The notes under the pieces are model-generated. The model was not told where the DNA came from, did no database searches, and worked only from the letters and a program-made list of their open reading frames with translations. From positions 5,092 through 69,091 of the forward strand of contig JAGRNR010000009.1 in NCBI GenBank assembly GCA_020440645.1: a stretch of DNA of 64,000 nt. Direction: 5' to 3'. This document shows, in pieces, positions 24,072 through 47,835 of this stretch. The translations under genes and the position numbers were made by a program. The DNA comes from a bacterium (lineage in GTDB: Bacteria > 4484-113 > JAFGCY01). Each line of letters starts with the position of its first letter. Positions within the stretch are counted from its first letter, which is position 1.

Positions 24072-24082
24072 GAGGGCCTGCG

Positions 24083-29755: not shown

Positions 29756-31918
29756 CTACTCGTACCTCCCGAGGAAGCTCTGAATGATGCGCCGCAGTGT
29801 CTCGTTGAGCGGGAAGGAGACGACAATGCACATCAGCACGGCACCCAACAGCAGCACGAACATGTAGTTCTGGATCTGCCCGTTCTGCCAGTAGCGGCCG
29901 TGCAGCCGCTTGATGATCCACCAGATCTCGCAGCACCACCAGCGGATGCCGTCGACGAAGTGCAGGTCAAGCCAGGCACTGGCATTGGCCAGCCCACGGC
30001 CGCCGCGCCCGATGCGCGTTGACAGCCAGTCGATCAGGCGGATGTCTGAAATGCCTGCAAGAATTGCGAGGAACTCGCCGAAGCCGCCCACCAGTCCCGT
30101 GAAGAAGGGCTTCAAGTACAGCCCCTCGCGGAAGAATCCGGTCACGCCTGTCAAGAGCGGGGTCGGGCTGGCCAGCCCGCGCTCCGAGGCGGAGACGAAT
30201 CCAAGCACTGCGCCGGCCAGCACCAGCACGACCGAGAGGCCGGCGGCCAGTGGTTCGAAGTTGCCTGCCCATTGCAGGTCGTGCAGCCGGCCCTCGAAAT
30301 AGGCGCGGTAGGATGGCCAGAAGGCGGCGATGCCGATGCTGCCGATGAGCGCCAGCAGGATGGAAATCACAGTCGGTCCGGCCCAGCCATTGCCTGCGGA
30401 CGCTTGCTCCGCCAGGCCATTGGCAGCCTCCTTGCCGGGGGAAGGCATCAGCCCGCTCAGCAGGCGCGCACAGTAGGCTGCGGTAAAGGGAATCGATGCG
30501 ATCAGCAGCAGCGCTCCGGCCTGCCAGTAACCCGGCATGGCGGGCATTGTGCTTGCCAGTGCGTTGCCACCGTAGTCCTGTCCGGCGCGGGACAGCAGCG
30601 CGGAGAGGATCTGGTCCTTGCCGAAGTAGCCCGCCAGCCCGATCACACCGGCCAGGCTCAGGCCGGCCGGCAGCAGGGCCAGCCAGAACAGCTGTCCGCT
30701 GGCGGGGGACTGCCTAAGGTCGTCAAAACTCGGTTCGTCGTCATTATGTGTTGCCTGGGCCTCATGCCAGCGCGCCACCACAATGCCGACCGCAAGGAAC
30801 AGCGCGGCCTTGAACCAGGCATGTGCCAGCAGCTGGAATCGCGCGGCCTCCATCGCCAGCGCCCCGCTGCCCATCACGCACAGCCCAAGCTGGCTGACCG
30901 TGCTCCAGGCCAGCAGCTTCTTCGGCTGCTGCTGGCAACAGGCCACGATCGAGCCCATGAGCATCGTCAGGCCGCCGAGCATCACCGCCCAGGCCAGCGG
31001 GGCCACGTACCAGCCGGGGTTGCCACTGTCCGCCTGCACCGGCACGACAGTTCGCCCGAACAGCAGGTCACTGGCCAACAGCGGCCCGGCCGCCACCAGA
31101 GTTGCACTGTGCAGCAGGGCACTGACCGGGGCCGGGGCCACCATCGCATCCGGCAGCCAGAATGACAGCGGCAGGAGTGCTGCCTTGCCGAGCACGGCCA
31201 GCAGGACTAATAGTCCGGCCACGATCATCCAGTTCACGGCGGACAGCTGGTCCGGTACATGCTGTGCCACCCAGCCGATGCTGACCTGGCTGAGCTGCAC
31301 CATGTGCACACCGAAGCGGCCGAAGCCGAACATGAAGATGAAGATCGCGAACAGCAGCCCGAAGTCCGTGGCGCGCGTCGTCCAGAAGGCCTGGCGCGCT
31401 GCCCGGTTGGCCTCCGGCGTGCCCTTGTGGCGGATCAGCAGGTAGCCGGCGAGGCCCATCATTTCCCAGGCGATGTACAGCAGGATCAAAGTGTCACTGA
31501 CGAGGAACAGCAGCATTGAGCCGCAGAAGAATGTCAGCAGCGCATGGAATTGCGCGGCCTTCGGGTCAGCGCGCCGCTCGCGGATTGCATACAGCAACAC
31601 CGCCACGCCGATCAGGCAGGTTGTCAGGATGAACAGCACCTGCGTGTAGTCCGCGCGCAGGGCCAGCGGGATCGGCGGGAAGGCGCGGATCTCCGTGGTG
31701 TAGCCGCTGATCCAGTTGACCATCCATACCGCGCGGCCGGTCTCGGCATCCAGTCCCGCATTGACGGCGAGCGCCATCCCGGCACTGGCCACAAGCGACA
31801 GCACGCCGAGCAGGGCCGTGACGACGGCCGGCACACGGCGCATGAGCAGGCCCGCCCCCGCCGCCAGCAGCGGCAGAAGCGCGATCAGCGGCAGCAGTCC
31901 CTGCATCTCAGGCACCAC
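29756..31918 (-). CDS. nuoL: Complex I subunit NuoL-like (MrpA-type antiporter-like subunit, 720 aa)
   Basis: Motifs LLYIAWEMMGLAGYLLIRH, LPDAMVAPAPVSALLHSATLVAAG and a long C-terminal extension. Confidence 0.85.
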   Translation of the reverse strand: MVPEMQGLLPLIALLPLLAAGAGLLMRRVPAVVTALLGVLSLVASAGMALAVNAGLDAETGRAVWMVNWISGYTTEIRAFPPIPLALRADYTQVLFILTTCLIGVAVLLYAIRERRADPKAAQFHALLTFFCGSMLLFLVSDTLILLYIAWEMMGLAGYLLIRHKGTPEANRAARQAFWTTRATDFGLLFAIFIFMFGFGRFGVHMVQLSQVSIGWVAQHVPDQLSAVNWMIVAGLLVLLAVLGKAALLPLSFWLPDAMVAPAPVSALLHSATLVAAGPLLASDLLFGRTVVPVQADSGNPGWYVAPLAWAVMLGGLTMLMGSIVACCQQQPKKLLAWSTVSQLGLCVMGSGALAMEAARFQLLAHAWFKAALFLAVGIVVARWHEAQATHNDDEPSFDDLRQSPASGQLFWLALLPAGLSLAGVIGLAGYFGKDQILSALLSRAGQDYGGNALASTMPAMPGYWQAGALLLIASIPFTAAYCARLLSGLMPSPGKEAANGLAEQASAGNGWAGPTVISILLALIGSIGIAAFWPSYRAYFEGRLHDLQWAGNFEPLAAGLSVVLVLAGAVLGFVSASERGLASPTPLLTGVTGFFREGLYLKPFFTGLVGGFGEFLAILAGISDIRLIDWLSTRIGRGGRGLANASAWLDLHFVDGIRWWCCEIWWIIKRLHGRYWQNGQIQNYMFVLLLGAVLMCIVVSFPLNETLRRIIQSFLGRYE

Positions 31919-31953: not shown

Positions 31954-32439
31954 TCAATCCTTCATCAGGTTGGCATCATCAAGCATGATGCTCTTCTTCA
32001 TGCGGTAGAAGGCGATGATGATCGCCAGCCCGACCGCAGCCTCAGCCGCAGCAACGATGATCACGAATATCGAGAACACCTGGCCCATGTTCGTCATCAC
32101 GGATTCCTCCGCGGTGAACGAGGCCAGGGTGGATTTCGGTCCGTAGTAGAAGTTGAACGCGCTCATGTTGATGTTGACGGCGTTGAGCATCAGCTCCAGC
32201 GCCAGCAGCATCCCGATCGCATTGCGCCGCGCGATCACGCCGTACAGCCCGAGGCAGAAGATGAACGCGCTGAGCACGAAGTACTGGTGGTAGTCCACGT
32301 TGGTGAACCACACCATCGGCGTGTCGCCACTTGAGGCGAACCACTGGCGCGAGGCGAACTCGATCGCCTGGATGATCGGCGCCAGGCCCTCGCTCGCCAG
32401 CGAGCCACCCTCGGACTGTTGCAGCAGCAGCAGTAACAT
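31954..32439 (-). CDS. nuoK: Complex I subunit NuoK, with a possible N-terminal extension of about 40 aa
   Basis: ORF 31954..32652. The internal ATG at 32437-32439 overlaps the nuoJ stop (ATGA coupling). NuoK core: YFVLSAFIFCLGLYGVIARRNAIGMLLALELMLNAVNINM ... AEAAVGLAIIIAFYR. Confidence 0.75.
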   Translation of the reverse strand: MLLLLLQQSEGGSLASEGLAPIIQAIEFASRQWFASSGDTPMVWFTNVDYHQYFVLSAFIFCLGLYGVIARRNAIGMLLALELMLNAVNINMSAFNFYYGPKSTLASFTAEESVMTNMGQVFSIFVIIVAAAEAAVGLAIIIAFYRMKKSIMLDDANLMKD

Positions 32440-33485
32440 CAGTCCTTCCTCACCAGGATGATCGCGCCGAGCATCGCCATGAGCAGGAGCACGCTGGCCA
32501 CTTCGAAGGGAAGTGTGTACGTTGCCATCAGCGACCAGCCGATGGCCTGGGTATTGCTTGTCAGTACTGCCGCACTGGGCGGGAACTCGGTGTTCTGCGG
32601 GAACTGCATGAACATCCCGACGAGCGCCATGAAGCCGAACAGCATCGTGCACAAAAGCGCGGCCCAGGGGCTCAGGTCAGTGTTCTGCCTGAGCTCGGTG
32701 CCGATGATGTTCTGGCTGACCATGATGCCGAACAGGAACAGCACCATGATGCCGCCGATGTAGATGATCACCTGCACCATCGCGAGGAACTCAGCGTTGA
32801 GCAGGATGAAGTAGCCGGCCACGCCGAACAGCGAAAGGATCAGCATCAGCGCGGAGTGGAACACGTTGCGCATCGTTACGCAACCGATGCCGCCGCCGAC
32901 CACGCCCGCCGTGAACAGCCAGAAGAAGAAGTTCAGCAGCCTGAGCGCGGGCACGCTGAGTGCCAGCATGCCCCAGAAGAAGGCGATGAAGCCAACGACT
33001 GTGAGGATTGCCAGCAGGCGCCGGTGGTCATGGAAGCGGTGCAGCGAAAGCTGCACGCAGGCGATCGTGCCGCCGACCAGCCCGAGGATCAGCATATTTG
33101 AAAGGTTGACAACCAGCGGCTGGAACAGCAGGGAGCTGATCACGAACACCGCCAGGCCAGCGCTGGCTGCCACCCGCAGCAGTCCGGCCTCCGCCGGCAG
33201 GCGGTTGAACAGCATCAGGTTCAGCAGGTAGAAGCCGGCGAGCATGCTGGCGCCCACCAGGATGCGTGCGTCCAGCTGCAAGGCCGCGGACCAGTCCAGT
33301 TTTCCACCCAGCGCTGCCAGCGGGGCGGCCAGCAGCGCCACAAGCACCGCGATCCCGGCCGTTGCCAGCAGCTGGCGGAAGATGCCGTCCAGCCGGTTGA
33401 CGAGCAGTCCGGCGGCCGCCAGCAACGCGGCCAGCAGGGCCACATTGCGCAGCAGCATAAGGGCGGCGGGCAGGCTGGTTTCCAT
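32439..33485 (-). CDS. nuoJ: Complex I subunit NuoJ with an N-terminal multi-TM extension of about 190 aa
   Basis: The C-terminal half matches NuoJ (FHSALMLILSLFGVAGYFILLNAEFLAMVQVIIYIGGIMVLFLFGIMV ... EVASVLLLMAMLGAIIL). The N-terminal half is additional hydrophobic helices. Confidence 0.75.
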   Translation of the reverse strand: METSLPAALMLLRNVALLAALLAAAGLLVNRLDGIFRQLLATAGIAVLVALLAAPLAALGGKLDWSAALQLDARILVGASMLAGFYLLNLMLFNRLPAEAGLLRVAASAGLAVFVISSLLFQPLVVNLSNMLILGLVGGTIACVQLSLHRFHDHRRLLAILTVVGFIAFFWGMLALSVPALRLLNFFFWLFTAGVVGGGIGCVTMRNVFHSALMLILSLFGVAGYFILLNAEFLAMVQVIIYIGGIMVLFLFGIMVSQNIIGTELRQNTDLSPWAALLCTMLFGFMALVGMFMQFPQNTEFPPSAAVLTSNTQAIGWSLMATYTLPFEVASVLLLMAMLGAIILVRKD

Positions 33486-34480
33486 CAGGAACTCACCTCC
33501 CCGCGTGGCCGCCTGAGCGGCAGCACCAGCGCCTCGCGATTGGCAACCGGCATCGCCCAGCGCTCCTCGAACACGACGAGCGGGGTGCCGTCCGCGCGCT
33601 TCAGTTCGCCCAGCGCGGGATCATGGTCATAGCGTCCGAGGTCAACGAACAGCACCGTCGGCTGCCCGGGGGCCTGCGCGATTGCACCGCTGCCATCGGC
33701 GGCGATGATGCGCAGCGCTTCCTCCTCAGTCAGTGAGTCGACATTCAAGAGCGGCACGCCGCGGTAGGCCGCCGGCAGCTTCGGCCGGCTGCGCGGATAG
33801 TCCTCGGTGAAGGGCTCGCTCGAAGCCATCCGGGCGGTCTCGCGGAAGCCGGTCAGCACGGAGGTGCCGTAGCGGTGCACGCGGTTGCTGAAGAACCAGA
33901 ATTGGCTGAAGCCGGTTGCAAGGTAGCTCAGGTTGAGCACGAACACCAGGAACCAGAACAGCGCCCAGAGCATGAAGTAGCCGAGCTGGAACTTGAACAC
34001 GGGGAGGCTGCCGGTCTCGCGCCAGATGGCGAAGCCCTCGCCGCTGAGCAGAAGCGTCAGGTTCGGCGTGTCGGCAATGCCCTTCACGCTCATCTTCGGG
34101 TGGATGCGGTCCAGCGGGTCGAATTCCACGATGAAGAAGAACAGGATGATCACGAACAGCAGCAGACGCCAGAGCGTGAAGTCGCGCACCATCCAGCGGC
34201 TGTACTTCACAAGCGCGCCGGATGCCCACCAGAAGAAGCCGAGAATCGCCGGCAGGGCCAGCAGCAGGCCGCTAGCAGTGAACCACATCAGAGAGTACTG
34301 CTCGGAGGGCTGCTTGGAGGCATAGTCGTCAAACAGCGCGCCGTATTTCGTGTAGACGAACACCAACGTGAACCAGGACACGGCGATGAAGCCATAGAAC
34401 TTGAACCAGTCCATCGCGGTGTAGCCGAACCAGCGCTTCGGCAGCGGATGGTGGATTGTCAGGTCATGCCCGTCAGGCAT
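33485..34480 (-). CDS. Hypothetical membrane protein embedded in the nuo-like operon (about 331 aa: 4-5 TM plus a C-terminal soluble domain)
   Basis: ORF 33485..34561. Likely start MPDGHD. Its stop overlaps the nuoJ start (ATGA). No Cys motifs and no match to any known complex I subunit. Confidence 0.55.
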   Translation of the reverse strand: MPDGHDLTIHHPLPKRWFGYTAMDWFKFYGFIAVSWFTLVFVYTKYGALFDDYASKQPSEQYSLMWFTASGLLLALPAILGFFWWASGALVKYSRWMVRDFTLWRLLLFVIILFFFIVEFDPLDRIHPKMSVKGIADTPNLTLLLSGEGFAIWRETGSLPVFKFQLGYFMLWALFWFLVFVLNLSYLATGFSQFWFFSNRVHRYGTSVLTGFRETARMASSEPFTEDYPRSRPKLPAAYRGVPLLNVDSLTEEEALRIIAADGSGAIAQAPGQPTVLFVDLGRYDHDPALGELKRADGTPLVVFEERWAMPVANREALVLPLRRPRGEVSS

Positions 34481-34943
34481 GCTGCACCTCCTCCACCGTT
34501 TCCGGCTCGTTGGCAGCACTGCCGCCCGCTCCTGCTGCGGCGATGTTGCGCAGCTGGGCATGGTGCCCGGGCGCCGTCACCACGAACCAGTAGAGGAAGC
34601 CGGGCAGCAACAGCAGCACCGGCCGCAGTGTGAACTGCAGTTCGTACTGCAGCCACAGCGAATACAGGCAGCCGCAGGCCGCGAAGCTCCACAGCAGGGA
34701 AGCGATGCCGGGCCGCCGCCTGAACCAGGGGTTGATCCAGGCCGCATTGCGCGCCGGCGTCAGCGGCAGCACCGCCAGCAGCAGGCCGATTGCCAGCAGG
34801 GCCAGCGGGCCGAACCACTGCGTTGTCAGCACGGGTGCCACTCCAAGCACGATGCGCAGGTACAGGCCCCAGGCCCCGGCGGCCACGAGCAGCAGCTCTC
34901 CGAGGAGATGCAGCAGGTTCTGGCTGGTTGACAGCATCCTCAT
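34473..34943 (-). CDS. Hypothetical membrane protein embedded in the nuo-like operon (about 156 aa, 3-4 TM)
   Basis: ORF 34473..35042. Likely start MRMLSTSQNLL immediately after the nuoH stop. Overlaps the downstream gene by about 8 nt. Confidence 0.5.
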   Translation of the reverse strand: MRMLSTSQNLLHLLGELLLVAAGAWGLYLRIVLGVAPVLTTQWFGPLALLAIGLLLAVLPLTPARNAAWINPWFRRRPGIASLLWSFAACGCLYSLWLQYELQFTLRPVLLLLPGFLYWFVVTAPGHHAQLRNIAAAGAGGSAANEPETVEEVQHA

Positions 34944-36715
34944 CCGGTCCAGCTCACCTCCCGGCGGGGCTGCGGATGTCGGCGCTGCACGAACAGGATG
35001 CGCCAGGCCATCAGGAGGATGAACAGGCCGAAGAACAGGCACAGCACGTTGTAGCCCCAGAAGAAGGCCTTCTCGGGGACTGTCATCACCGCCAGTGCTT
35101 CAGCTGTTGTCAGCGTCTGGTACTGGGTGACGCGCTGCAGGGCGGTCACGTCGACATCGGAGACGGCCAGCTGGTTCGCGCTGAACCAGGGATGGCGGTT
35201 GACGACGCCGAGCGCGGTGGCCGCCATCACGACCACGCTGGCCGGCAGCAGGAACTTCCAGGAGAAGAACATGATCTGGTCCACGCGGATGCGCGGCATC
35301 GTGGAGCGCGCCCATATGAAGAAGAAGCACACGGCGTAGGTCTTCAGCAGGAACCAGAACAGGCTCGTCAGCCACAATCCGTCGGGGCCGAGGAACATCG
35401 GGCCCTTCCAGCCGCCGAAGAAGCAGACGGTCATGATCGCGCTGACGATGAACACGTTGGAGTACTCGGCGACATAGAACAGCGCGAAGCGCATCCCGCT
35501 GTACTCCACCAGGTAGCCGCCCAAGAGCTCGTTCTGCGCTTCCGGCAGGTCAAAGGGCGGGCGGTTGGTCTCGGCAAGGCTGACAACGAGGTAGATGATG
35601 AAGGCCGGGAACAGCGGCAGGATGCCCCAGGTCATCGTCTGGCGCTGCACGATCTCCGTCAGGTTCAGCGAACCGGCAAAGATGGCAACGCACAGCAGGC
35701 TCATCAGCATCGGGATTTCGTAGGTCAGCAGCATCGCGGCCTCGCGCATCGCGCCGACCAGTGCATATTTGTTGTTGGAGGCGTAGCCGGACATGATCAC
35801 GGCCACGAGGAACATCGCAAAGTCGGCGATGATCAGGAGCAGGCCGACATTCAGGTCCTGGATCATGTAGTAGATGATCTGCCCGTCGACAGCCGCCACG
35901 CCGAACGGGATCACCACCCAGCTCAGGAGCGCCGGCAGGTAGACGAGGATCGGCGCGATCAGGTACAGCAGCTTGTCAGCGCTGAGCGGAACGGTGTCTT
36001 CCTTGAAGAAGATCTTGATCGTGTCGTAGAAGCCCTGGCGCCAGTAGTAGCGCAGCATGTAGCTCATGTAGAGCACGAAGGCGACCACGGTGCACAGCAC
36101 GGTGAGCTGCGGCAAAAACGGGATGTGCGCCTTCGGGATGAAGCCCAGCAGGAGAGCGACGAGCATGCCACCGCAGGACGCGAGGGATGGCCAGGCCAGC
36201 AGTGACAGCAGCGTTGCCAGGAAGCGCCAGACGGAGGTCTGCGCGGCCTGCATCCGGCCGAGCGCTGGCAGGATCATCAAGCGGTTGATCAGCCCCATCA
36301 TGCCCACGGCGAAGAACAGGATGATCCAGCCGCCGAACTGTTGCCAGCCGGCGGTGCCGCCGGTCCAGTAGTTGATGCCGTACAGCAGCGCGGGCAGGCC
36401 GATCAGCACGCCGATCTGCAGGAAGATCCGCCGGAAGCGCTGCGGGGTGACCTCGCCGTACTCCTGCGGGCCGCGGCGGCCCTGCATGCGCGCCATCAGG
36501 CGGCGTTCCCAGACCTGCAGGCCGATGGTGATCATCAGCTCCAGGAGGAAGATCAGCAGGAGCGCCGTCACCAACATGATGCCGTTGGCAACCTCCGGGC
36601 TGAAGCGCAGGCCGGGCAGCGGCTCGGTGTTGAGCCAGGCGCGCATCGCCTCCCAGACGGTGCGGGCCTCGTCCATGTCGTAGCGCTGCTGCAGGATTGC
36701 CAGCATCGGGAGCAT
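34940..36715 (-). CDS. nuoH: Complex I subunit NuoH with N- and C-terminal extensions (about 591 aa)
   Basis: ORF 34940..36793. The likely ATG overlaps the nuoD TGA stop by 1 nt (ATGA). NuoH core motifs: IKIFFKEDTVPLSADKLLYLIAPIL, ADFAMFLVAVIMSGYASNNKYALVGAMR and AETNRPPFDLPEAQNELLGGYLVEYSGMRFALFYVAEY. About 200 extra N-terminal residues (4-5 TM) and about 100 extra C-terminal residues. Confidence 0.8.
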   Translation of the reverse strand: MLPMLAILQQRYDMDEARTVWEAMRAWLNTEPLPGLRFSPEVANGIMLVTALLLIFLLELMITIGLQVWERRLMARMQGRRGPQEYGEVTPQRFRRIFLQIGVLIGLPALLYGINYWTGGTAGWQQFGGWIILFFAVGMMGLINRLMILPALGRMQAAQTSVWRFLATLLSLLAWPSLASCGGMLVALLLGFIPKAHIPFLPQLTVLCTVVAFVLYMSYMLRYYWRQGFYDTIKIFFKEDTVPLSADKLLYLIAPILVYLPALLSWVVIPFGVAAVDGQIIYYMIQDLNVGLLLIIADFAMFLVAVIMSGYASNNKYALVGAMREAAMLLTYEIPMLMSLLCVAIFAGSLNLTEIVQRQTMTWGILPLFPAFIIYLVVSLAETNRPPFDLPEAQNELLGGYLVEYSGMRFALFYVAEYSNVFIVSAIMTVCFFGGWKGPMFLGPDGLWLTSLFWFLLKTYAVCFFFIWARSTMPRIRVDQIMFFSWKFLLPASVVVMAATALGVVNRHPWFSANQLAVSDVDVTALQRVTQYQTLTTAEALAVMTVPEKAFFWGYNVLCLFFGLFILLMAWRILFVQRRHPQPRREVSWTG

Positions 36716-37866
36716 CACTTGTCGACCTCCCCGATCATGATGTCGAGGCTGCCGTAGATCACGAACAGGTCCGCCAGCAGGTAGCCGCGGCACAGCTCGT
36801 CCAGCAGGAACAGGTGGTACAGGCTCGGCGCACGCAGGTGCATGCGGCTCGGGCGGTTGCTGCCGTCGCTGACGAGTGTCAGGCCGAGCTCGCCGCGCGG
36901 GCTCTCGACCGCCGTGTAGACCTCGCCGCGTGAGACCTGCATCGCAGCGAAGTCTGGGCTGACATCCGCCGCCCGCAGCTCGCCGTTGTCAATGTAAGCC
37001 AGGCAGTGCTCAATGATGCGCAGGCTCTCGCGCATCTCGACGAAGCGCACGCGGTAGCGGTCCAGCACATCGCCATACTCGCCGGTCGGCACATGCAGCT
37101 CCAGCTCGCCGTACATCGCATAGGGCTGGTCGCGGCGCAGGTCATGCGCGATCCCGCTGCCGCGCAGCACGGGCCCGGTGGCACCGTGCTCGAAGGCGAA
37201 CTCGGGCTCGAGCGTGCCGATCAGCTCGCTGCGGTTGACCCAGATCGCGTTGTCAGAGAAGAAGTCCTCGTATTCATCCAGCCGGCCCTGGAACCACAGG
37301 CAGAATGCCCGCACATGGCCGCTGAAGTCCTCCGGCGGGGCAGTGCGCACGCCGCCGGGCACGATCCAGCCGTGGTGGTGGCGGTGCCCGCTGAGCATCT
37401 CCAGCAGGTCGAGCAGCATCTCGCGCTCGCGCAGCGAGATGAAGATCGGGGTGTAGGCGCCGGCCTCCAGGCCGAGGTTGCCAAACCAGAACAGGTGGTT
37501 GCCGATCCGGCTCAGCTCCAGCACAAGGGTGCGCAGCCACTGCGCACGGGCCGGAACCGTGATCCCCTCGATGCGCTCGATGGCGTCCGCCACCAGCCAG
37601 TCCGCATTGCTGCCGGCCAGCCACTCGCAGCGGGACAACAGCCCCGCCGCCTGGGCGTAGTTGCGCTGGGTCACCAGCTGCTCCACGCCGCGGTGCATGA
37701 AGCCGACCTCCGGCGTGATGCGCTCGATCAGCTCGCCGTCCGCCTGTACCCGCAGTTCCAGCGGGCTCGGCAGGCTCGGATGCTGCGGGCCGACGGAGTA
37801 GACCAGCTTCTCGGTCAGCAGCGGGTCGCGGCGGATCTCGACACGGCGATCAGAGCTGCGCGTCAT
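36715..37866 (-). CDS. nuoD: Complex I 49-kDa subunit NuoD-like (no [NiFe] cysteine motifs)
   Basis: Motifs VGPQHPS, EVGFMHRGVEQL, RIGNHLFWFG and C-terminal SLDIMIGEVDK. ATG at 37866 (the track starts at the TTG three nt upstream). Overlaps nuoC by about 20 nt. Confidence 0.85.
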   Translation of the reverse strand: MTRSSDRRVEIRRDPLLTEKLVYSVGPQHPSLPSPLELRVQADGELIERITPEVGFMHRGVEQLVTQRNYAQAAGLLSRCEWLAGSNADWLVADAIERIEGITVPARAQWLRTLVLELSRIGNHLFWFGNLGLEAGAYTPIFISLREREMLLDLLEMLSGHRHHHGWIVPGGVRTAPPEDFSGHVRAFCLWFQGRLDEYEDFFSDNAIWVNRSELIGTLEPEFAFEHGATGPVLRGSGIAHDLRRDQPYAMYGELELHVPTGEYGDVLDRYRVRFVEMRESLRIIEHCLAYIDNGELRAADVSPDFAAMQVSRGEVYTAVESPRGELGLTLVSDGSNRPSRMHLRAPSLYHLFLLDELCRGYLLADLFVIYGSLDIMIGEVDK

Positions 37867-38434
37867 CAAGCACCTCCCGCATCGCCGCGTCCGCGCGCTG
37901 TTTCAGCACGTTTTCAGCGTAGTTCTCATGTGAGGCAGCCCTGAACTCCCGCCTGAGCGGGAAGCCCTGCAGCTGCGGGTCGAGGATCAGGCCAATGAGG
38001 TTAGGGTTGCCGGCGAAGGGGATGCCGAAGAACTCGAAGATCTCGCGCTCCATCAGCTCCGTGGCCCGCCAGATCAGGCTCAGGCTGGGGTGCACGCTCT
38101 GCCCGGCATAGGCCGGCGCGGCCTCGCTGTCCTCCCCGCCCGGATCCGTTGCCGGGGGATTGCCCTCCAGCAGGGTGAATTTCCATTTCAGTGTGAGGCT
38201 GACGTCATGCCGCCTGCCGTGCCTGAGCGTCAGGTAGAGGTGGAAGTCCGGCCCGCCGAGGTGGTTGGCGGTCATGTTCAGCGCACGGATGAAGCCGATG
38301 TTCTTCAGCTGGCGGCAGACCAGCGGCAGCTGGCCGCTGTCCGTCAGGATCGCCCAGCCGCGGGCGGGGTCCAGCAGCAGCACATCACCGCAGTCCTCAC
38401 GGATCTGACCGGCAAGCTCATCAGGGAGCACCAA
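37850..38434 (-). CDS. nuoC: Complex I 30-kDa subunit NuoC
   Basis: NuoC signature SLSLIWRATELMEREIFEFFGIPFAGNPNLIGLIL. First gene of the operon, downstream of an AT-rich spacer. Confidence 0.85.
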   Translation of the reverse strand: MVLPDELAGQIREDCGDVLLLDPARGWAILTDSGQLPLVCRQLKNIGFIRALNMTANHLGGPDFHLYLTLRHGRRHDVSLTLKWKFTLLEGNPPATDPGGEDSEAAPAYAGQSVHPSLSLIWRATELMEREIFEFFGIPFAGNPNLIGLILDPQLQGFPLRREFRAASHENYAENVLKQRADAAMREVLDDAQL

Positions 38435-38749: not shown

Positions 38750-39025
38750 ATGCCACAGCAGCATGAATTAATTACTGCAATCCTCGGACTTGGCGTGTTG
38801 TTGCTGATGATCGTGCAACGCCGCCAGCTGCGGCTCATCCCTGACTACCGCTGGCTGTTCCTCTCCTACTGCCTGATCCTGCTGGCCTGGCTGCTGACCA
38901 TTGCGGAAGATTACTGGCTGCCGGTCTACATGAACCTGCTGGAGCATATCTGTTACCTGGCCAGCGCAGCGCTGGTCGCCTGGTGGACACAGAAGTTCCT
39001 CAGAAGGGAAGCGCCACAGCAATGA
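38750..39025 (+). CDS. Small hypothetical membrane protein (about 91 aa) translationally coupled to the histidine kinase gene
   Basis: ORF 38657..39025. Likely start MPQQHELITAILGLGVLLLM. Its TGA stop overlaps the kinase ATG (ATGA). Confidence 0.45.
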   Translation: MPQQHELITAILGLGVLLLMIVQRRQLRLIPDYRWLFLSYCLILLAWLLTIAEDYWLPVYMNLLEHICYLASAALVAWWTQKFLRREAPQQ

Positions 39026-40836
39026 GCATGCTGCTGACGGTGTTTGACCTGCTGAGCCTGCTGGCCGTGCTGTCTGCACTGTGGCTGGCGGCAGCCAGGC
39101 GGATTGCCGGCCTGCGGCGTGACTACCTGTGGTGCCTGATCATCCTGCTGGTGGTGCTGGGTCTCAACTTCCTCAGCAACCTGCTGGACAACAGCGGGCT
39201 GAGCCCCTGGCTGGAGCGCTTCGAGGACTACCCCGGACTGCTGCAGCCGGTGTTCTGGGGCATCCTCCTGATGAGCCTGGTGCAGGACCGCGCCCTGCGC
39301 CGCACCGAGCTCTCTGAACAGCGGCTGCGCGGCCTGCTGGACGCGATGCGTGACGGGGTTGCCACTATTGACCCGGGTGGCGTGTTCCGCTTTGCCAACC
39401 CGGCGGCCGCGGAAATCCTCGGGGTTGCCCACGGCAGCCTTAGCGGCCGCAGTCTGGACGAGTTCTGGCTGGCTACCGAATCGCATACTTGCCGGATGCT
39501 GCCACATTCCCCGGGCCAGGATTACAGCGCCTACGAATGCGGCATCCGCCATGGCAGCGGCGACAGCCTCGTGCTGCTGCTGCAGGTCTCGCCGATCCCG
39601 GGCCAGCCCCGCCAGCGCCTGCTGTTCATGCATGATGTGACCCCGCTGCGCCGGGCCGAGCACAGCCTGCAGCAGGCCCAGGCCCAGCTCGGACAGGCCC
39701 AGCGGCTGGAGGCGATCGGCACGCTGGCCAGCGGCATCGCCCATGACTTCAACAACATCCTGTTCGCGATTTCCGGCAACAGCCAGATCGCGCTGGATAC
39801 TGAGGGACTGACCGTCGATGCGCGGGAGAGCCTGCGCGAGATCGACACCGCCAGCCGCCGCGCCTCCGACCTGGTGGCGCAGATCCTCAACTTCAGCCGC
39901 AGCGAGAAGAGCCGGACACGGGACCTGTTGCCACTTCCGGTTGTCAAGGAAGTGCTGCGCCTGCTGCGCTCCACCGTGCCGCCGCAGGTCAGCATCCAGC
40001 TCAGCCATGACGAATCGACGTGCCGGATCCATGCCGACCCGACCGACCTGCACCAGCTGCTGATGAACCTCTGCACCAATGCGATCCAGGAGATGGCGGT
40101 GGAGGGCGGGACGCTGCGGGTCCGGTTGGAGTGCAGCAATCCACCGCCGACACTGGCCGAGCGGGGAATGCTGCAGCCTAAACCACACCTGATGCTCAAG
40201 GTCAGTGACACGGGGGGCGGTATTCCACCGGATGCGCTGCCGCACATCTTCGAGCCCTTCTTCACGACCAAGCCAAGCGGTGAGGGCACCGGTCTAGGGC
40301 TGTTCGTTGTCAGCGGGATCGTCAAGCGCCTGCAGGGACAGATCGAGATTGACAGCGAACCGGGCCATGGCAGCAGCTTCACGGTCTGGCTGCCGCTGTC
40401 CAGCGGGGCCGCTGATGCCGACGATGCCGGGCCGGGGCAGGCCACCGGCCGCGGCCGGGGCCGGCTGCTGGTGGTTGACGACGAGCCGGCGGTCAACCGG
40501 GTGCTGGCGCTGATGCTCGGCCAGCTCGGCTACAAGGTGACAACCTATAGCGACAGCTACCGCGCGCTCAGTGAGTTCCAGACCAACCCGGAGCAGTACG
40601 ACCTGCTGCTGTGCGACATCTCGATGCCGGGCCTGCGCGGCGATGAACTGGTGAAGCGGATACGCTCCGTTCGCCCAGGCCTGCCGGTGGTGCTGTGCTC
40701 CGGCAATCCGGATGTTCTGCCTCCGGGCAGTGCAACTGAACTGGGTGTGCATGCAGTGCTTAAGAAACCGGTTGACAAGCCACAGCTGGCGGATTGCATC
40801 GCCGAGGCACTTGGCAGTAACCGTGCACAGGCCTGA
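39022..40836 (+). CDS. Hybrid sensor histidine kinase (TM sensor, PAS, HisKA, HATPase_c and C-terminal receiver domains)
   Basis: ORF 38983..40836. H-box IGTLASGIAHDFNNIL. HATPase G-boxes DTGGGIP and GEGTGLGL. REC domain LLVVDDEPAVNRVL ... DLLLCDISMPG ... K. PAS-like segment before the H-box. Confidence 0.8.
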   Translation: MSMLLTVFDLLSLLAVLSALWLAAARRIAGLRRDYLWCLIILLVVLGLNFLSNLLDNSGLSPWLERFEDYPGLLQPVFWGILLMSLVQDRALRRTELSEQRLRGLLDAMRDGVATIDPGGVFRFANPAAAEILGVAHGSLSGRSLDEFWLATESHTCRMLPHSPGQDYSAYECGIRHGSGDSLVLLLQVSPIPGQPRQRLLFMHDVTPLRRAEHSLQQAQAQLGQAQRLEAIGTLASGIAHDFNNILFAISGNSQIALDTEGLTVDARESLREIDTASRRASDLVAQILNFSRSEKSRTRDLLPLPVVKEVLRLLRSTVPPQVSIQLSHDESTCRIHADPTDLHQLLMNLCTNAIQEMAVEGGTLRVRLECSNPPPTLAERGMLQPKPHLMLKVSDTGGGIPPDALPHIFEPFFTTKPSGEGTGLGLFVVSGIVKRLQGQIEIDSEPGHGSSFTVWLPLSSGAADADDAGPGQATGRGRGRLLVVDDEPAVNRVLALMLGQLGYKVTTYSDSYRALSEFQTNPEQYDLLLCDISMPGLRGDELVKRIRSVRPGLPVVLCSGNPDVLPPGSATELGVHAVLKKPVDKPQLADCIAEALGSNRAQA

Positions 40837-40884
40837 CGGGCGGGCGCGTCAGTGCTTTGTGATATACATGGGGAGGAGGCAGGC

Positions 40885-41250
40885 ATGGCGAAGAAGAAGT
40901 TCGAGGATGTGGACCCGCAGGTGCTGGCGGCCTACATGAAGATGATCGGGGGCGTTGAAGGGGTCGAGGCCAAGGGGGCCGCCGCGCCGTACACCTCCCT
41001 GAATGGCAATATGTACTCCAGTATCTCGAAGTTCAACGAGATCGGCCTGCGGCTGGCGAAGGATGAGCGCGAGGCCTTCCTCGAGAAGTACGACACCCGG
41101 CTCTACCACTCCATCCCCGGATATGTGCAGCGGGAGTATGTCACCGTGCCGCCTGCACTGTTTGGCAACACACGCACTCTGCGCAGCTGGTTCCGGAAGT
41201 CCTACGACTACGTCTCATCACTGCCGGCGAAGCCCACGAAGAAGAAGTAG
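40885..41250 (+). CDS. Hypothetical protein (about 121 aa)
   Basis: ORF 40852..41250. Likely start MAKKKF, preceded by GGAGGAGG. Lys-rich termini. No assignable motif. Confidence 0.5.
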   Translation: MAKKKFEDVDPQVLAAYMKMIGGVEGVEAKGAAAPYTSLNGNMYSSISKFNEIGLRLAKDEREAFLEKYDTRLYHSIPGYVQREYVTVPPALFGNTRTLRSWFRKSYDYVSSLPAKPTKKK

Positions 41251-41320
41251 CGGGAAGGATTTCGGCGCTCGCTTGTCGGCAGTAGCGGGCGCGCTTGGCG
41301 ACGCCATGGAGTGATTGCCG

Positions 41321-41471
41321 CGAAGCAATGAGTGATGGTGTGTTGGTCTGCAGACCAACAGGGCCCTGTGGCTCTCAAGAGCCACACTCCGCCGCGTGCG
41401 CGCAGCCACGCGGAAAGCCCCTCTGCAATGAGCAATGCGGAGCAAGCAATGAGCCCGACGACACTCATTGC
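41321..41471. other. Cluster of four consecutive hairpins/palindromes with a thrice-repeated GCAATGAG motif in a 490-bp convergent intergenic spacer (candidate structured RNA or repeat element)
   Basis: TTGGTCTGCAGACCAA (perfect 16-bp palindrome, 41343-41358). GTGGCTCT-ca-AGAGCCAC (41368-41385). CGCGTG-cgcgcagc-CACGCG (41393-41412). GCAATGAG-cccgacgaca-CTCATTGC (41445-41470). GCAATGAG also occurs at 41325 and 41425. Confidence 0.35.
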
Positions 41472-41741
41472 CAGACTCTGCGGCTCTGCGTTCACCAATA
41501 TCGCTCCACCCCAGCCGCATTGCCAACCAAGTGCAGGCTAGCCTCAGCCCAGTCAAACTGGAGAATTGTCAACACAGAGCCACCGAGCGCACAGAGTTTT
41601 CTGATCAGCTCCAGTCCCCGCATTTCCCTGACTTCGCTGCATCCCCTCCCAATCGCGGCTGGGCCGCGCCGGTTCTTCCGGTAACCCTGACCCTTGTTCT
41701 TCAGGTTGACTGATTCACTGGGAAATCCGAGACGAGCCAGT

Positions 41742-42539
41742 CTATGAATACAGAAGATCCTCAAAATCCTCCGTCAGCTCTCCATGGAAAGTAGGGTAGT
41801 CAACCCTCCGGACATTGCGCCGCCATGGTCGCGGCCCCAGCTCGCTGCTTGTAAGCAGCTTGAGGTGAAGCGGATCGACATCTGTTGCCAGGCTGCATTC
41901 CGATCCGATGATCCCGTCTTTGTCCATGAAGTCCGTGTTTGGCCAGATATTGAAACTGCGACCGGATGACGTCCGGATCGAAGTCGGATTGAAGCCCATG
42001 GCAATCTCCATGGCATTGTAGCTTTCCCTGCGGATATCCAGCGGCAGGGCAAACCTTGACTGCTCAACATGCGCTGCATCCGACAATGCAGACTCTCCCT
42101 TTTGCCATTCGGGAAGGGGCATCGAGGCACTCAGGATGACAAAGGCCTTCTCTTGCCAGACGCCCGCATGATCCCTGACACAGCATGGGAACATCAGCCA
42201 CTTCATCCGCCGTTGAAACGCCGCGAATCCCACGCTGCCAATGTTCAGCAGCAGTTCCGCAAGCACTTTCGCCGGTTTCTCCATACCGGCATCCCAGGAC
42301 CTGGCCTTATCCAGGCAGCCTGCCGGAATTCTGAGCAGAAATCCCGATGCATGATCGAGATACCAGTCGGCATTGCATCTGGTGCAGATGTGCAGGATTC
42401 CGCGTTGCCAGCTTTCCCTGCGGATGATGAGCTTGTGCAGTTTGAAGTATGGGGTTTCCTCCCGGACACTTGCAGGAGGATCAGGATCCCAGGGGAGTGA
42501 TTCCCTGACCTGACAAGGGCAGCTGGCCTTGATACTCAT
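41742..42539 (-). CDS. Hypothetical protein (265 aa) with an N-terminal Cys cluster (CPC...CTRC), co-oriented downstream of nuoA-nuoB
   Basis: Protein-like composition, 20 nt downstream of the nuoB stop. The four Cys in SCPCQ...HICTRC suggest a small zinc-ribbon. Not a ferredoxin-type CxxCxxCxxxCP motif. Confidence 0.5.
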   Translation of the reverse strand: MSIKASCPCQVRESLPWDPDPPASVREETPYFKLHKLIIRRESWQRGILHICTRCNADWYLDHASGFLLRIPAGCLDKARSWDAGMEKPAKVLAELLLNIGSVGFAAFQRRMKWLMFPCCVRDHAGVWQEKAFVILSASMPLPEWQKGESALSDAAHVEQSRFALPLDIRRESYNAMEIAMGFNPTSIRTSSGRSFNIWPNTDFMDKDGIIGSECSLATDVDPLHLKLLTSSELGPRPWRRNVRRVDYPTFHGELTEDFEDLLYS

Positions 42540-42558: not shown

Positions 42559-43011
42559 CTACCGCCACGCAAACCGCTCATCCAGCGCACCCGAGAGGAT
42601 GCGCTCCCGGAGCGCGATGATGCCGTCGATCAGCTGCTCGGGCCGCGGCGGGTCGCCCGGCACATAGATGTCCACTGGTACGATGCGGTCCACTCCCCCG
42701 TCCACCGCATAGCTGCCGTCGAAGGGCGCGCCGCTGATCGCCCCCGCGCCAAACGCCATCACGAAGGCCGGGTCGGCCATCGAGGCATGCAGCCGGCGGA
42801 TCACCGGGGCCATCTTGTTGTTGACGACGCCGGCCACGATCAAAAGGTCCACCTGGCGCGGGCTGGGGCGCATCACCTCAGAGCCGAAGCGCGCGATGTC
42901 ATAGCGCGGCGAGATCGCGCTGAACAGTTCCAGCGTGGCGTAGTCCAGTCCGAGCATCAGCGGCCACAGGGAATGGGCACTGGCCTCGCGGATGAGGTCC
43001 TTCAGACCCAT
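42559..43011 (-). CDS. nuoB: Complex I 20-kDa subunit NuoB-like, with all four N2 cluster cysteine ligands replaced
   Basis: Clear NuoB scaffold (SLWPLMLGLDYATLELFSAISPRYDIARFGSEVMRPSPRQVDLLIVAGVVNNKMAPVIRRL ... RIVPVDIYVPGDPPRPEQL). The canonical CC, C (GACATSG) and C (PGCPP) positions read DY, G (GAGAISG) and D (PGDPP). Confidence 0.8.
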   Translation of the reverse strand: MGLKDLIREASAHSLWPLMLGLDYATLELFSAISPRYDIARFGSEVMRPSPRQVDLLIVAGVVNNKMAPVIRRLHASMADPAFVMAFGAGAISGAPFDGSYAVDGGVDRIVPVDIYVPGDPPRPEQLIDGIIALRERILSGALDERFAWR

Positions 43012-43400
43012 TCCAGCGCTCCCTTGCGGTAGGCATAGGCCCAGCCGACGAGCAGGATGCCGAGGAACACGAACATCTCGCCCAGTGAGGCGGCCCCGAT
43101 CGGCGTGAAGGTGATGTCGTCATTGCCGAACACCAGCAGCCGGAAAGCGGTGGCCCAGGGGAAGATGAACATGATGTCCACGTCGAACATGAGGAACACG
43201 ATCGCGAGGATGTAGAAGCGGATGTTGAAGCGCACCAGCGCATCGCCGGTGGCCTGCGCGCCGGATTCATAGCTCAGGCGCTTGAGGAAGTTCGGCCGCC
43301 GCGGACGCCACAGGTTCAGGAAAGCGAATGCCAGCCCGATCAGCACCGCCCCGCCCAGCAGGAAGAGTGCCACCCAGTTGTACTGTCCAACGGTGTTCAT
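43002..43400 (-). CDS. nuoA: Complex I subunit NuoA
   Basis: 132 aa, three TM. The NuoA motif is FDVDIMFIFPWA. Overlaps nuoB by 10 nt. Confidence 0.85.
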   Translation of the reverse strand: MNTVGQYNWVALFLLGGAVLIGLAFAFLNLWRPRRPNFLKRLSYESGAQATGDALVRFNIRFYILAIVFLMFDVDIMFIFPWATAFRLLVFGNDDITFTPIGAASLGEMFVFLGILLVGWAYAYRKGALEWV

Positions 43401-43453: not shown

Positions 43454-45553
43454 CTAGTTCACGGTGATGAACTTGTAGGCGATGCCCGTTTCCCCGAGCG
43501 AATCCGTCACCCGCACGGCAAGTGTGTAGAATCCGGGTGAGTTGAGGGTAGTGTTGATCGTGCTGTTCTCGAAGGTGGCTTCGAAGAAGCCGTCACCGTC
43601 CAGGTCATAGTCATAGATAACCGACAGCCCGTCCTCATCGTCCGAGCTCAGGCTGGCATCCAGCATTACCAGCACCGGTGCAAACCCAGTGTCCGGTGAT
43701 CCAGTCAGCACGGCGTTGGGCGGATGGTTCTCCAGACAGGTCAGCTTGTAGGCGCCCGGGCCGGTCTCGATGGCGGAACCGGGCACGAACACCTTCAGGT
43801 AGTAGCGCCCGGCGGCCGGCAGGCTGAAGTTGATGTATTCACGGTCCACGTTGTCAATCGATTCAATCAACGGAACGACCAGGTCTGACTCATGGTACAG
43901 AGCCAGTGAAAGGTCGACCGTCGCCGAACTGAAGTCCACCCAGAAGCTGGCGGTGGTGGCCCGGTCGGCATCGATCGCGTACCAGTCCTCGGTGTCGCTG
44001 CCGCCGACGCTAGCACTCCAGTCGCGGATATGCTTCGCGTAGTTGAGGAAACCGCCGAGGCTGTCCGCCTCCGTCTCGGCATTGTTGGGCTCAGTCTCCT
44101 GCGGGTCCACCCCGTTTGACACGATCACCTTCAGGCTGGCGGTGGCCTCCCGCTCACCACTGTCGGTGATGCGCACCGTTGGCGTGAATTCGCCGGGCAG
44201 CGTGTAGGTGATGTCACCACCGGGGTTCAGGCCGAGGTCATAGTCAAACGTGCCGTCACCCTCGAAGTCCCATTCGTACTTGACGATGTCATTGTCGGGG
44301 TCCACGAGGCCGCTGGTGTCGATGTAACGGATGATTCCGTTCTGCAGGCAGTAGTAGTCGATGCTCAGTTCAGCAGTGGGCGGGTTCTCACCGCTGATCG
44401 GCGTGATCGTGACATCCGTCGTGGCCGTGGCACTTTCCCCGAAGAAATCGATCACCATCACCCCGACGGTGAAGGTGCCGGCCTCGATGAATTCGCGGTA
44501 GGCGAAGGGGACCGGGGTCTGCAGCTCATGGAACCCGTCGTCGTCAAGGTCCCAGCGGTAATTGACGATGCCGCCATCCGGGTCCATGCTGTTGAAGGCG
44601 TCAAAGTTGATGGCCTGGGGCAGCGGACCGCCGTTCGGCAAGGCCACGATGTCCGCGATCGGTGGCAGGTTGCCCGGTTCACCGGTCACATTGATCGTGG
44701 CGGTGGCTTCGCCGGTGCCACCTTCGTTATCAACCACGCGCAGGGTGCAGGTGAAGGTGCCGACATGGTCGTAGTCGTGGCTGGGGGTCGGCCCGAGGTC
44801 ACCGGGTGTGAAGTAGATTGGGTCCTCGAATGACCAGTGGTACTCGGCGATCGTGCCATCCAGGTCGGAGCTGGCGGAGCCGTCAAACCCTGTGGTGAAG
44901 AAGTACTGGCCGCTGTCCTGGGCCACGGTGAAGCTGGCGGTCGGGGCGAAGTTGCCACCGAGCCGCACACGGGTCAGCTCGAAGCTGCCGCTGCCGGTCA
45001 GCAACACGCAGCAGTAGATCGCGTCGAAGTTCGAGAAATAGCCGTCCAGCGAGCCGAAGTCGAAGTGGTCATCGTCATTGCCAAGCTGCCATTTCCAGCG
45101 GCCGCTGCCGTAATCCGTGATGCCGACGTAGTACTCGCCGGAGTCCGGGCGCACGCCCCACTGCAGGTCGACCTGAGCCTCCCTTGCGAATCCCGGCAGG
45201 TGGTAACCGTAGATGCCCCAGCTCACATCCAGCTTCGGCGGGTTGGCGGCGGGGTCCCAGTCCGGGGCCATCAGCAGGCTGTCCCCGAACACGATCGCAT
45301 TCTCGCGGCTGCCGGGCGTGATGATCTCCGCACCCTTGCGGATGTAGTCCGCCGGTGTATCACTGAAGCTGCGCCCAACGGCGGGCAGCTCGGCCGGGGC
45401 TGGAAGCTGGGCAAGCAGGTCCTGCGGCAGTTCAACCGGACCGGACTGGCGCTCAGGCGTGGCAGCCTTTTCCTGCAGGTTGGCAGCGCCGGATGAACAG
45501 GCTGCCAGGCAGAATAGGCAGCCTGCCAGCAGAAGGGCAAATGAAGCACGCAT
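43454..45553 (-). CDS. Surface lipoprotein, paralog 1 of 4: novel N-terminal domain, PKD-like repeats, pre-peptidase C-terminal (PPC)-like domain
   Basis: Lipobox LLLAGCLFCLAACSSG. PKD-like blocks (YHWSFEDP ... NYRWDLDDDGFHE ... KYEWDFEGDGTFD). PPC-like block ETEPNNAETEAD ... DTEDWYAID ... YYLKVF. GAGGA RBS. Confidence 0.75.
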   Translation of the reverse strand: MRASFALLLAGCLFCLAACSSGAANLQEKAATPERQSGPVELPQDLLAQLPAPAELPAVGRSFSDTPADYIRKGAEIITPGSRENAIVFGDSLLMAPDWDPAANPPKLDVSWGIYGYHLPGFAREAQVDLQWGVRPDSGEYYVGITDYGSGRWKWQLGNDDDHFDFGSLDGYFSNFDAIYCCVLLTGSGSFELTRVRLGGNFAPTASFTVAQDSGQYFFTTGFDGSASSDLDGTIAEYHWSFEDPIYFTPGDLGPTPSHDYDHVGTFTCTLRVVDNEGGTGEATATINVTGEPGNLPPIADIVALPNGGPLPQAINFDAFNSMDPDGGIVNYRWDLDDDGFHELQTPVPFAYREFIEAGTFTVGVMVIDFFGESATATTDVTITPISGENPPTAELSIDYYCLQNGIIRYIDTSGLVDPDNDIVKYEWDFEGDGTFDYDLGLNPGGDITYTLPGEFTPTVRITDSGEREATASLKVIVSNGVDPQETEPNNAETEADSLGGFLNYAKHIRDWSASVGGSDTEDWYAIDADRATTASFWVDFSSATVDLSLALYHESDLVVPLIESIDNVDREYINFSLPAAGRYYLKVFVPGSAIETGPGAYKLTCLENHPPNAVLTGSPDTGFAPVLVMLDASLSSDDEDGLSVIYDYDLDGDGFFEATFENSTINTTLNSPGFYTLAVRVTDSLGETGIAYKFITVN

Positions 45554-45600
45554 CTTTATTCCTCACTGCGCCCGGATACTCTCCAGCAAGCTGGAGGGGC

Positions 45601-45618
45601 AGCACAGAATTCTAACTG
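45601..45618 (-). promoter_or_regulatory. Putative promoter element (TAGAAT -10-like box within GTTAGAATTCTGTGC) upstream of lipoprotein paralog 1
   Basis: Minus-strand sequence cagTTAGAATTCTGTGCtg about 55 nt upstream of the ATG. Near-identical to the element upstream of paralog 3 and similar to that upstream of paralog 2. Confidence 0.35.
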
Positions 45619-45675
45619 AAAGAATCACCAAACTGAGCTTCGCGGCAAGCAGGTCCCAGCTACCCCTGGCACGGT

Positions 45676-47790: not shown

Positions 47791-47835
47791 CTTTATTCCT
47801 TGAACCTGCCTGGTTCCTTATGGCAGTGCAGGAGG

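Follow-up and report, generated by a model that had tools for sequence, protein, structure and literature searches.

A complex I-derived operon of an uncultured bacterium without ligands for iron-sulfur clusters or quinone, and its possible redox-independent function

The window analysed here, a stretch of 64,000 nucleotides (contig JAGRNR010000009.1 of GenBank assembly GCA_020440645.1, positions 5,092 to 69,091), carries on its reverse strand an operon of eleven genes that encodes a derivative of respiratory complex I. The genes are arranged as nuoA-B', an island of about 4 kb, and nuoC-D'-H-X-I'-J-K-L-M. The argument starts from the gene of the NuoB homologue:

42559..43011, reverse strand: nuoB', 150 amino acids (aa), ATG start and no internal stop codon; a NuoB/PSST homologue without a single cysteine

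The product of this gene matches Pfam family PF01058 (Oxidored_q6; 1.8e-19, 70.2 bits against a cut-off of 27) and passes the NCBIfam models of NuoB (NF005012, 162.8 against 116; TIGR01957, 154 against 142.7). Its closest solved structure is Nqo6 of Thermus thermophilus (2fug_6, E 5.9e-38), followed by about 40 further complex I chains, while the small subunits of hydrogenases give E-values of 2.8e-23 (MbhJ) and 8.8e-22 (HycG). The model of NuoB' predicted with AlphaFold2 (AF2) matches NuoB/PSST chains with a Foldseek probability of 1.0 and a TM-score of about 0.5. The protein is thus a genuine NuoB and not a misidentified one, as a preliminary description of this DNA had proposed. In Nqo6 the [4Fe-4S] cluster N2 is held by Cys45, 46, 111 and 140, and the HMMER alignment places Tyr24, Ala25, Gly90 and Asp120 of NuoB' at these positions. 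The three motifs concerned read GLDYATLEL for GLACCAIEM, GAGAISG for GACASSG and PGDPPRPE for PGCPPRPE. The same description had reported the loss of all four cysteines, which is borne out, and had named the substitutions correctly for the third (Cys to Gly) and the fourth (Cys to Asp), but its replacement of the tandem cysteines by Asp-Tyr was off by one position: Ala44-Cys45-Cys46 of Nqo6 corresponds to Asp23-Tyr24-Ala25, so that CC became YA and the preceding Ala became Asp. Neither shifted cysteine ligands nor compensating cysteines or histidines were found in NuoB', whose only histidines, H13 and H75, are not conserved across the family. The four N2 cysteines are invariant in all 72 canonical relatives of a first search and in 115 of the 118 proteins of a second, and their absence in NuoB' is thus beyond chance variation.

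A search of 5.8 billion proteins revealed 48 protein clusters (P0001-P0048, 61-97% identity) that share the ligand replacements, with Tyr (once His) at the first position, Ala, Thr, Cys, Gly or Ser at the second, Gly (twice Asn) at the third and Asp at the fourth. All matches with less than 60% identity to NuoB' retain the four cysteines. Within the family Asp23 and Asp120 never vary, Tyr24 and Gly90 are conserved to at least 90%, and in a neighbour-joining tree the 48 clusters are monophyletic. The non-synonymous and synonymous substitution rates of nuoB' (dN/dS) were 0.024/0.526 in comparison with locus L002 and 0.045/0.289 in comparison with L003, with ratios in the range 0.05-0.15, and the cysteine-free state recurs in independent assemblies from NCBI, ENA, JGI and Logan. 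A pseudogene or a sequencing error at nuoB' was rejected on the basis of the 48 clusters, the purifying selection and the intact open reading frames (ORFs); neither frameshifts nor other signs of decay were seen.

Several NuoB-like proteins with partial replacements also came up. P0044, encoded on a metagenome contig of 503 bp, combines a canonical N-terminal half containing the tandem CC with a C-terminal half of the family type (GSGAISGAPF, PGDPPRPE; overall pattern CC..G..D); it looks chimeric, and was not used as an intermediate, since on so short a contig it may be a product of misassembly as well as a genuine intermediate. P0199 (L114, 5203-5685, and L115, 512-994) and P0201 have Tyr/His-Cys-Gly-Asp at the ligand positions, and were set aside as orphans: they are located between a ROK-family gene and the gene of adenylosuccinate synthetase, in a neighbourhood that lacks nuo genes. 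Fused NuoI-NuoB-like (HycF-HycG-like) proteins are encoded in hydrogenase-type loci L099 (734-1801), L100 (3293-4327), L101 (1811-2656), L102 (9290-10357) and L103 (691-1959); both ferredoxin motifs are intact in them, three of the four proximal-cluster cysteines of the NuoB part are replaced, and PGDPPRPE is present. They were rejected as members of the NuoB' family, being hydrogenase-type fusions, and possibly represent an independent partial loss of ligands in Ehr-type complexes.

Three genes of the operon encode the other subunits of the quinone module:

37850..38434, reverse strand: nuoC, 194 aa; Pfam PF00329, 1e-15; syntenic in all family operons
36715..37869, reverse strand: nuoD', 384 aa; NCBIfam NF004739, 386 against 360; quinone-headgroup ligands replaced
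33485..34480, reverse strand: nuoI', 331 aa, no cysteine; a four-helix N-terminal domain, a NuoI motif and a ferredoxin-like C-terminal domain

The closest solved relative of NuoD' is the 49-kDa subunit of Drosophila complex I (2.6e-84, against 4e-44 for MbhL). The canonical ligands of the quinone headgroup, His38 and Tyr87 in T. thermophilus Nqo4, are both replaced: the β1-β2 loop reads SLPSP for AAHGV (the His is Pro, Ala or Thr across the family), DRLDY became SRCEW with Trp for Tyr, and ALDVGA became GLEAGA with Glu for the partner Asp. A PDB alignment, an alignment of seven family and seven canonical sequences and three members added later gave the same result, with His, Tyr and Asp replaced in all ten family operons.

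NuoI' had no sequence match in Pfam, NCBIfam or PDB, and a profile search of 1.84 billion representatives found 27 proteins and did not reach canonical NuoI. Its assignment as a NuoI homologue follows from five proteins found in this search (P0174, P0178, P0181, P0182 and P0185), in which this membrane domain, DPxDxI loop included, is joined to a NuoI with both cluster motifs intact. A NuoI/HycF-like fold was found for the protein, and the segment SVLTGFRETAR..FTEDYP..LPAAYRGVPLL corresponds to LxGLxVTxxHFF..VTxQYPEE..P..YRGxPxL of canonical NuoI; hhalign aligned the two with a probability of 89.6% (E 1.9e-6) over the 46 columns of this N-terminal motif only. Both CxxCxxCxxxCP motifs are gone, so that none of the eight cysteine ligands of N6a and N6b is left; sixteen of 43 family members contain no cysteine at all. 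Between membrane helices 3 and 4 (residues about 119-135) lies a near-invariant loop, (F)DPLDxIHPxMSxKG, predicted to be periplasmic, which could be an ion or metal site.

Genes of the NADH input module (NuoE/F/G) and NuoN were not found in the window, and no NuoE/F/G genes are present in the flanks of loci L105-L107. NuoB' is predicted to be unable to hold cluster N2, hence to pass electrons to quinone, as the preliminary description had argued from NuoB alone; this is supported by the 48 clusters and by the losses in NuoI' and NuoD', and the present analysis extends it to the whole eleven-gene complex and adds the existence of redox-competent sister operons, both of which that description had missed. 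The combination of absent ligands for N2, N6a and N6b, absent quinone ligands and an absent input module means, on sequence grounds, that this complex I derivative cannot be a quinone reductase or NADH:quinone oxidoreductase. One might still suppose that the complex is redox-active with another acceptor, Asp23, Tyr24 and Asp120 of NuoB' together with residues of NuoD' holding a different metal centre or a cluster with non-cysteine ligands. The replacements are indeed conserved, Asp23 and Asp120 without exception and Tyr24 to 90% or more, and Asp and Tyr are able to ligate iron in other proteins. However, one of the ligand positions is occupied by Gly and another is variable (Ala, Thr, Cys, Gly or Ser), leaving three oxygen ligands at most; the eight cysteines of NuoI' are gone, leaving no electron path to the site; an input module is lacking, as are the quinone His and Tyr; and a sister operon described below (L108) has Glu, Asp, Gly and Ser at the N2 positions, with no ligand set in common. 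Such a redox-active complex is quite improbable.

The membrane arm presents a different picture of conservation. Its genes are as follows:

43002..43400, reverse strand: nuoA, 132 aa; Pfam PF00507, 9.8e-28; overlaps nuoB' by 10 nucleotides
34940..36715, reverse strand: nuoH, 591 aa with the ATG at 36715 as start (the longest ORF begins at 36793); Pfam PF00146, 3.2e-97
34473..34943, reverse strand: X, a small membrane protein of 156 aa; its ATG overlaps the nuoH stop codon
32439..33485, reverse strand: nuoJ, 348 aa; Pfam PF00499, 4.5e-38, covering residues 199-344 only
31954..32439, reverse strand: nuoK, about 161 aa with the ATG at 32439 as start (the longest ORF begins at 32652; the start was set from the lengths of family proteins and a start-codon check); Pfam PF00420, 4.4e-25
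29756..31918, reverse strand: nuoL, 720 aa; Pfam PF00361
28055..29755, reverse strand: nuoM, 566 aa, with which the operon ends; NCBIfam TIGR01972, 450.6 against 263.8

Throughout the family, every key charged residue of the proton pathways has been kept, both in the antiporter-like subunits NuoL and NuoM and in the E-channel subunits NuoH, A, J and K. NuoA keeps YESG and FDVD (canonically FD-x-E), motifs conserved in all family loci, and NuoH keeps ER, Q..D..K, KE, SNNKY, YE, ETNRPPFDLPEAxNEL, EYS and PRIRxDQ. The IIYIGG motif of transmembrane helix (TM) 3 is conserved in NuoJ, and both membrane glutamates of NuoK (LELMLN, AAAEAAVG) are present in nine of nine family loci. A column check of the same number of loci showed conservation in NuoL of Glu in TM5, an Asp, Lys in TM7, His in TM8, His/Lys in TM11 and Lys in TM12; in NuoM, the top PDB matches of which are all NuoM/ND4, Glu in TM5, Lys in TM7, Lys in TM8, His in TM11 and Glu in TM12 are conserved. 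The lineages compared have only 43-55% identity in NuoL and NuoM, so that this conservation reflects selection.

The membrane arm also contains additional parts. NuoH, aligned to that of Mycobacterium smegmatis, has an insertion of about 140 residues in the loop between TM1 and TM2 and a C-terminal extension, and NuoJ of the window is lengthened at its N-terminus by about 190 residues of membrane sequence. Protein X matches no Pfam or NCBIfam family, and six further redox-dead operons have a counterpart of it in the place between nuoH and nuoI'. Its homologues in loci L005, L081, L082, L092 and L098 match one another (tblastn, 1e-18 to 1e-39), and the match of the window protein to them is weak (E 0.31); in L106 and L107 the same slot holds a gene of similar size, and X is absent from L105, L108 and the redox-competent sister operons.

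The order A-B-C-D-H-X-I'-J-K-L-M is contiguous in the diverged loci L005, L081, L082, L092 and L098, and is kept in L106 and L107 with extra small genes. In L105 a nucleotidyltransferase/HepT toxin-antitoxin pair (9391-10004) lies between nuoH and nuoI', at the usual place of X, and L105 and L106 have an extra gene of a 178-aa membrane protein between nuoD and nuoH. In the window, the stop codon of one gene overlaps the start of the next at D/H, H/X, X/I', I'/J and J/K, and all eleven ORFs are intact. A scan for promoters and terminators gave weak consensus matches only, which were not used as evidence. The island that separates nuoA-B from nuoC-M is composed as follows:

38657-42539, both strands: the island as a whole, about 4 kb
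38657-39025, forward strand: a small membrane protein
38983-40836, forward strand: a PAS hybrid histidine kinase/response regulator
40852-41250, forward strand: a TfoX_N-like protein
41742-42539, reverse strand: a protein of 265 aa assigned to no family

It partly recurs in the close relative L004 and is absent from the diverged operons; their contiguity indicates that it is a lineage-specific insertion. All four redox-dead operons seen to their end (those of the window and L105-L107) finish at nuoM, as do all seven operons so seen when L108, L110 and L112 are included, and the gene that follows nuoM lies on the opposite strand. The window operon has only two genes of antiporter-like PF00361 proteins, as against L, M and N of complex I.

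Outside the operon, the region just upstream of nuoA (43454-52914, reverse strand) holds four consecutive large paralogues of 699, 498, 697 and 940 aa. Lipoprotein-like N-termini are present in the three that are full-length; the ORF of 498 aa begins inside the conserved region; the first (43454-45553) carries PKD and pre-peptidase C-terminal (PPC) domains, and the other three are similar by eye. Just past nuoM are a MotB/FliL/NHL-repeat cluster (21852-25750, forward strand) and a PP2C phosphatase gene (25747-27348, reverse strand). Large ankyrin-repeat proteins are encoded at 1628-4021 (reverse strand) and 57978-60308 (forward strand).

Two explanations that would deprive the complex of a function of its own can be weighed at this point. 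The first is that the genes are a decaying relic, an artefact of sequencing or assembly, or paralogues without function, a canonical complex I being encoded at another place in the genome. The loss of catalytic ligands is what would be expected of an outgoing pseudoenzyme, but eleven intact ORFs with overlapping start and stop codons, the same state in independent assemblies, dN/dS of 0.05-0.15, membrane-arm residues invariant at 43-55% identity of NuoL and NuoM, and the gain of parts after the loss make this scarcely credible. The second is that the subunits are swapped into a canonical complex I encoded elsewhere, as assembly variants that switch it off or regulate it, for which the NdhD/NdhF variants of cyanobacterial NDH-1 provide a model of isoform exchange in a complex I-type enzyme. 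This is highly improbable: the operon encodes a full, translationally coupled set of eleven subunits conserved as a block, and the extensions of the membrane subunits are family-specific and fit each other, not a canonical partner.

The ancestry of the complex can be followed in four related operons:

L108, 6045-15753: intermediate operon; its NuoI is P0183
L110, 5993-15869: redox-competent; its NuoI is P0178
L112, 3470-13775: redox-competent; its NuoI is P0181
L113, 5808-15933: redox-competent; its NuoI is P0174

The three redox-competent operons consist of ten genes, A-B-C-D-H-I-J-K-L-M, with no NuoN or NuoEFG. They retain the four cysteines of NuoB, both cluster motifs of NuoI and the His and Tyr of NuoD; their NuoI is membrane-anchored by an N-terminal domain of four helices and their antiporter-like subunits are two, and they possess neither X nor the NuoJ extension. 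Downstream NHL-repeat and FliL genes are common to L110 and the window, and L110 and L112 adjoin flagellar genes. The literature searched did not yield any description of such ten-subunit complexes, and these operons look like a complex I variant in their own right, as yet undescribed. In L108, NuoB has no cysteine, with Glu-Asp, Gly and Ser as replacements (a single such protein cluster was found), and groups as the sister of the 48 clusters in the neighbour-joining tree; His and Tyr of its NuoD are replaced by Trp and Ile, and its NuoI, also among the 27 proteins of the profile search, keeps only ACP of the first motif and CxxCxxC (CYFCGLC) of the second.

The simplest reading of these sequences is a descent in three steps. 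The ancestor may have been a complex of ten subunits that was still redox-competent, had its NuoI anchored in the membrane and contained two antiporter-like subunits without NuoN; it would have lost N2 and the quinone site first and the clusters of NuoI afterwards; and it would then have evolved further under selection, gaining membrane parts (X, the NuoJ extension and the NuoH insertion). The series from L110 through L108 to the window would be a step-by-step record of the transition.

Taken together, these data suggest that the complex is very probably redox-dead yet functional. Evident selection acts only on the ion pathways and on the coupling loops to the former quinone cavity, and the complex thus probably runs on ion gradients alone. 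The best explanation overall, to which a probability of about 0.55 may be given, is that of a cofactor-free complex I derivative working as a redox-independent ion-translocating machine, in its likeliest form similar to the Mrp antiporters, which represent a redox-independent use of PF00361 subunits. That the mechanism is specifically an Mrp-like secondary cation/proton antiport can be proposed only tentatively. In such a machine the cap formed by NuoB', C, D' and I' might remain as a lid, structural or gating in its role, above the former quinone cavity and the E-channel. As a speculation, Asp23, Tyr24 and Asp120 of NuoB' might fill the site of the cluster, the carboxylates mimicking its negative charge and Tyr24 its bulk.

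Several points weigh against this explanation. The antiporter idea is based solely on which residues were kept and which were lost, and no counterpart of MrpB, E, F or G was detected among the operon products in Pfam and NCBIfam scans. In comparison of the window with L081, NuoB' and NuoD' have 67% and 69% identity, which places them among the better conserved subunits, and NuoL 44%; the conservation of the two cap subunits exceeds that expected of a passive cap and hints at an active role. The AF2 model of NuoB' is of moderate confidence only (predicted local distance difference test score, pLDDT, 69.6), lowest around the former ligand loops (residues 29-50 and 91-97). Finally, the negatives refer to the 64-kb window, and a canonical complex I, NuoN, NuoEFG or a partner enzyme may be encoded elsewhere in the genome.

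The high conservation of NuoB' and NuoD' favours the main rival, in which the complex would be an energy-coupling module. Proton flow through NuoL and NuoM would drive a conformational change in the remodelled quinone cavity and the added membrane domains (X, the membrane domain of NuoI', the NuoH insertion and the NuoJ extension), and this change would transport or transform something other than a small cation; the candidates are a lipid-like molecule that enters through the old quinone tunnel and a vectorial reaction similar to the CO2 hydration of DAB and Cup systems. Sensing of the proton-motive force would be a further alternative. The coupling loops are retained in NuoH (TM5-6, ETNRPPFDLPEAxNEL..EYS) and NuoA, the Trp that replaced the NuoD' tyrosine in ten of ten members could stack on a ligand, some 15-18 membrane helices were added after the redox loss, the motif of the predicted periplasmic loop of NuoI' is near-invariant, and DAB is a precedent. 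On the other side, no conserved gene of an enzyme or a substrate-binding protein adjoins the operon, the neighbours of which vary by lineage; no carbonic-anhydrase-like or other catalytic domain was detected in X or NuoI'; and the idea is too unspecific for testing by sequence. A module of this kind is considered less likely than the ion-translocating machine.

There is about an even chance that the family represents a natural cofactor-free complex I, that is, a redox pump turned back into a redox-independent machine in a lineage of uncultured bacteria, with the subunits of the quinone module as pseudoenzymes and with the coupling and proton-channel apparatus complete. In the literature searched, coverage of which was incomplete, there was no description of a complex I relative devoid of ligands for iron-sulfur clusters or other cofactors. 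The novelty would lie in a cofactor-free derivative with a traceable path from redox-competent relatives, the function of which we infer from sequence.

The central open question on complex I is how quinone chemistry in the peripheral arm drives proton pumping 100-200 Å away, and the family offers a natural experiment: the pumping and coupling residues are under selection, none of the redox sites is left, and the comparison can draw on relatives that are redox-competent or intermediate. It bears on the role of the NuoB/C/D/I cap without electron flow, on the operation of the E-channel and antiporter-like subunits as a secondary transporter, and on the conversion of an oxidoreductase into a transporter, the reverse of the usual route from Mrp to complex I. 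If the complex is active, the coupling machinery of complex I can be driven or gated without quinone chemistry, possibly by an ion gradient or by a ligand in the former quinone cavity. The family is also a trap for annotation, as NCBIfam scores name NuoB', NuoD' and NuoM as ordinary subunits and leave NuoI' and X unnamed, and metabolic reconstructions of UBP7-type and related metagenome-assembled genomes will wrongly credit them with an NADH dehydrogenase.

Among known systems, the closest is respiratory complex I or NDH-1 (Nuo, Nqo), above all in its forms without NuoEFG, with which the window operon shares homologues of A, B, C, D, H, I, J, K, L and M in canonical order; NuoB', NuoD' and NuoM score above the NCBIfam cut-offs for Nuo proteins, and their closest solved relatives are complex I chains. 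It differs in having no iron-sulfur chain, quinone ligands, NuoEFG module or third antiporter-like subunit, and in possessing the four-helix domain of NuoI', X, the NuoH insertion and the NuoJ extension. By descent the complex is a complex I; in its working it would be unlike it.

The relatives of group 4 hydrogenases (MBH, MBX/MBS, FHL) and Ehr have a module whose subunits are homologues of NuoB, D, H and L, and the large subunits of Ehr have likewise lost the catalytic metal ligands (PMC6349859, PMC10284858). However, Ehr complexes are still taken as redox enzymes in the literature searched, and for the subunits of the window the E-values favour complex I over hydrogenases by 14-40 orders of magnitude, with genes in the order nuoA-B-C-D-H. 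Membership of the Ehr/group 4 hydrogenases was rejected on these E-values to solved structures and on the Nuo gene order.

The DAB system (DabA/DabB) couples an ion gradient to a non-respiratory task by means of a PF00361 subunit with no redox subunits (10.1101/476713). It differs in being a two-protein system with a carbonic-anhydrase-like partner, and no such protein was found in scans of the window. PF00361 subunits of the complex I type are put to a similar use in cyanobacterial NDH-1MS/Cup, although the Cup systems keep a redox-active NDH-1 core.

Mrp antiporters are redox-independent and contain the antiporter-like subunits MrpA and MrpD (PF00361), NuoK-like and NuoJ-like elements, and MrpB, E, F and G. 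The window complex resembles them in its two PF00361 subunits, and the NCBIfam models of MrpA and MrpD are secondary matches to its NuoL and NuoM. In contrast, Mrp has no homologues of NuoB, C, D, H and I, whereas the window complex retains the B/C/D/I cap; its NuoL and NuoM are Nuo orthologues, and NuoM scores 450 bits with TIGR01972 against 180 bits with the MrpD model. The resemblance to Mrp would be a convergent reversion and not membership.

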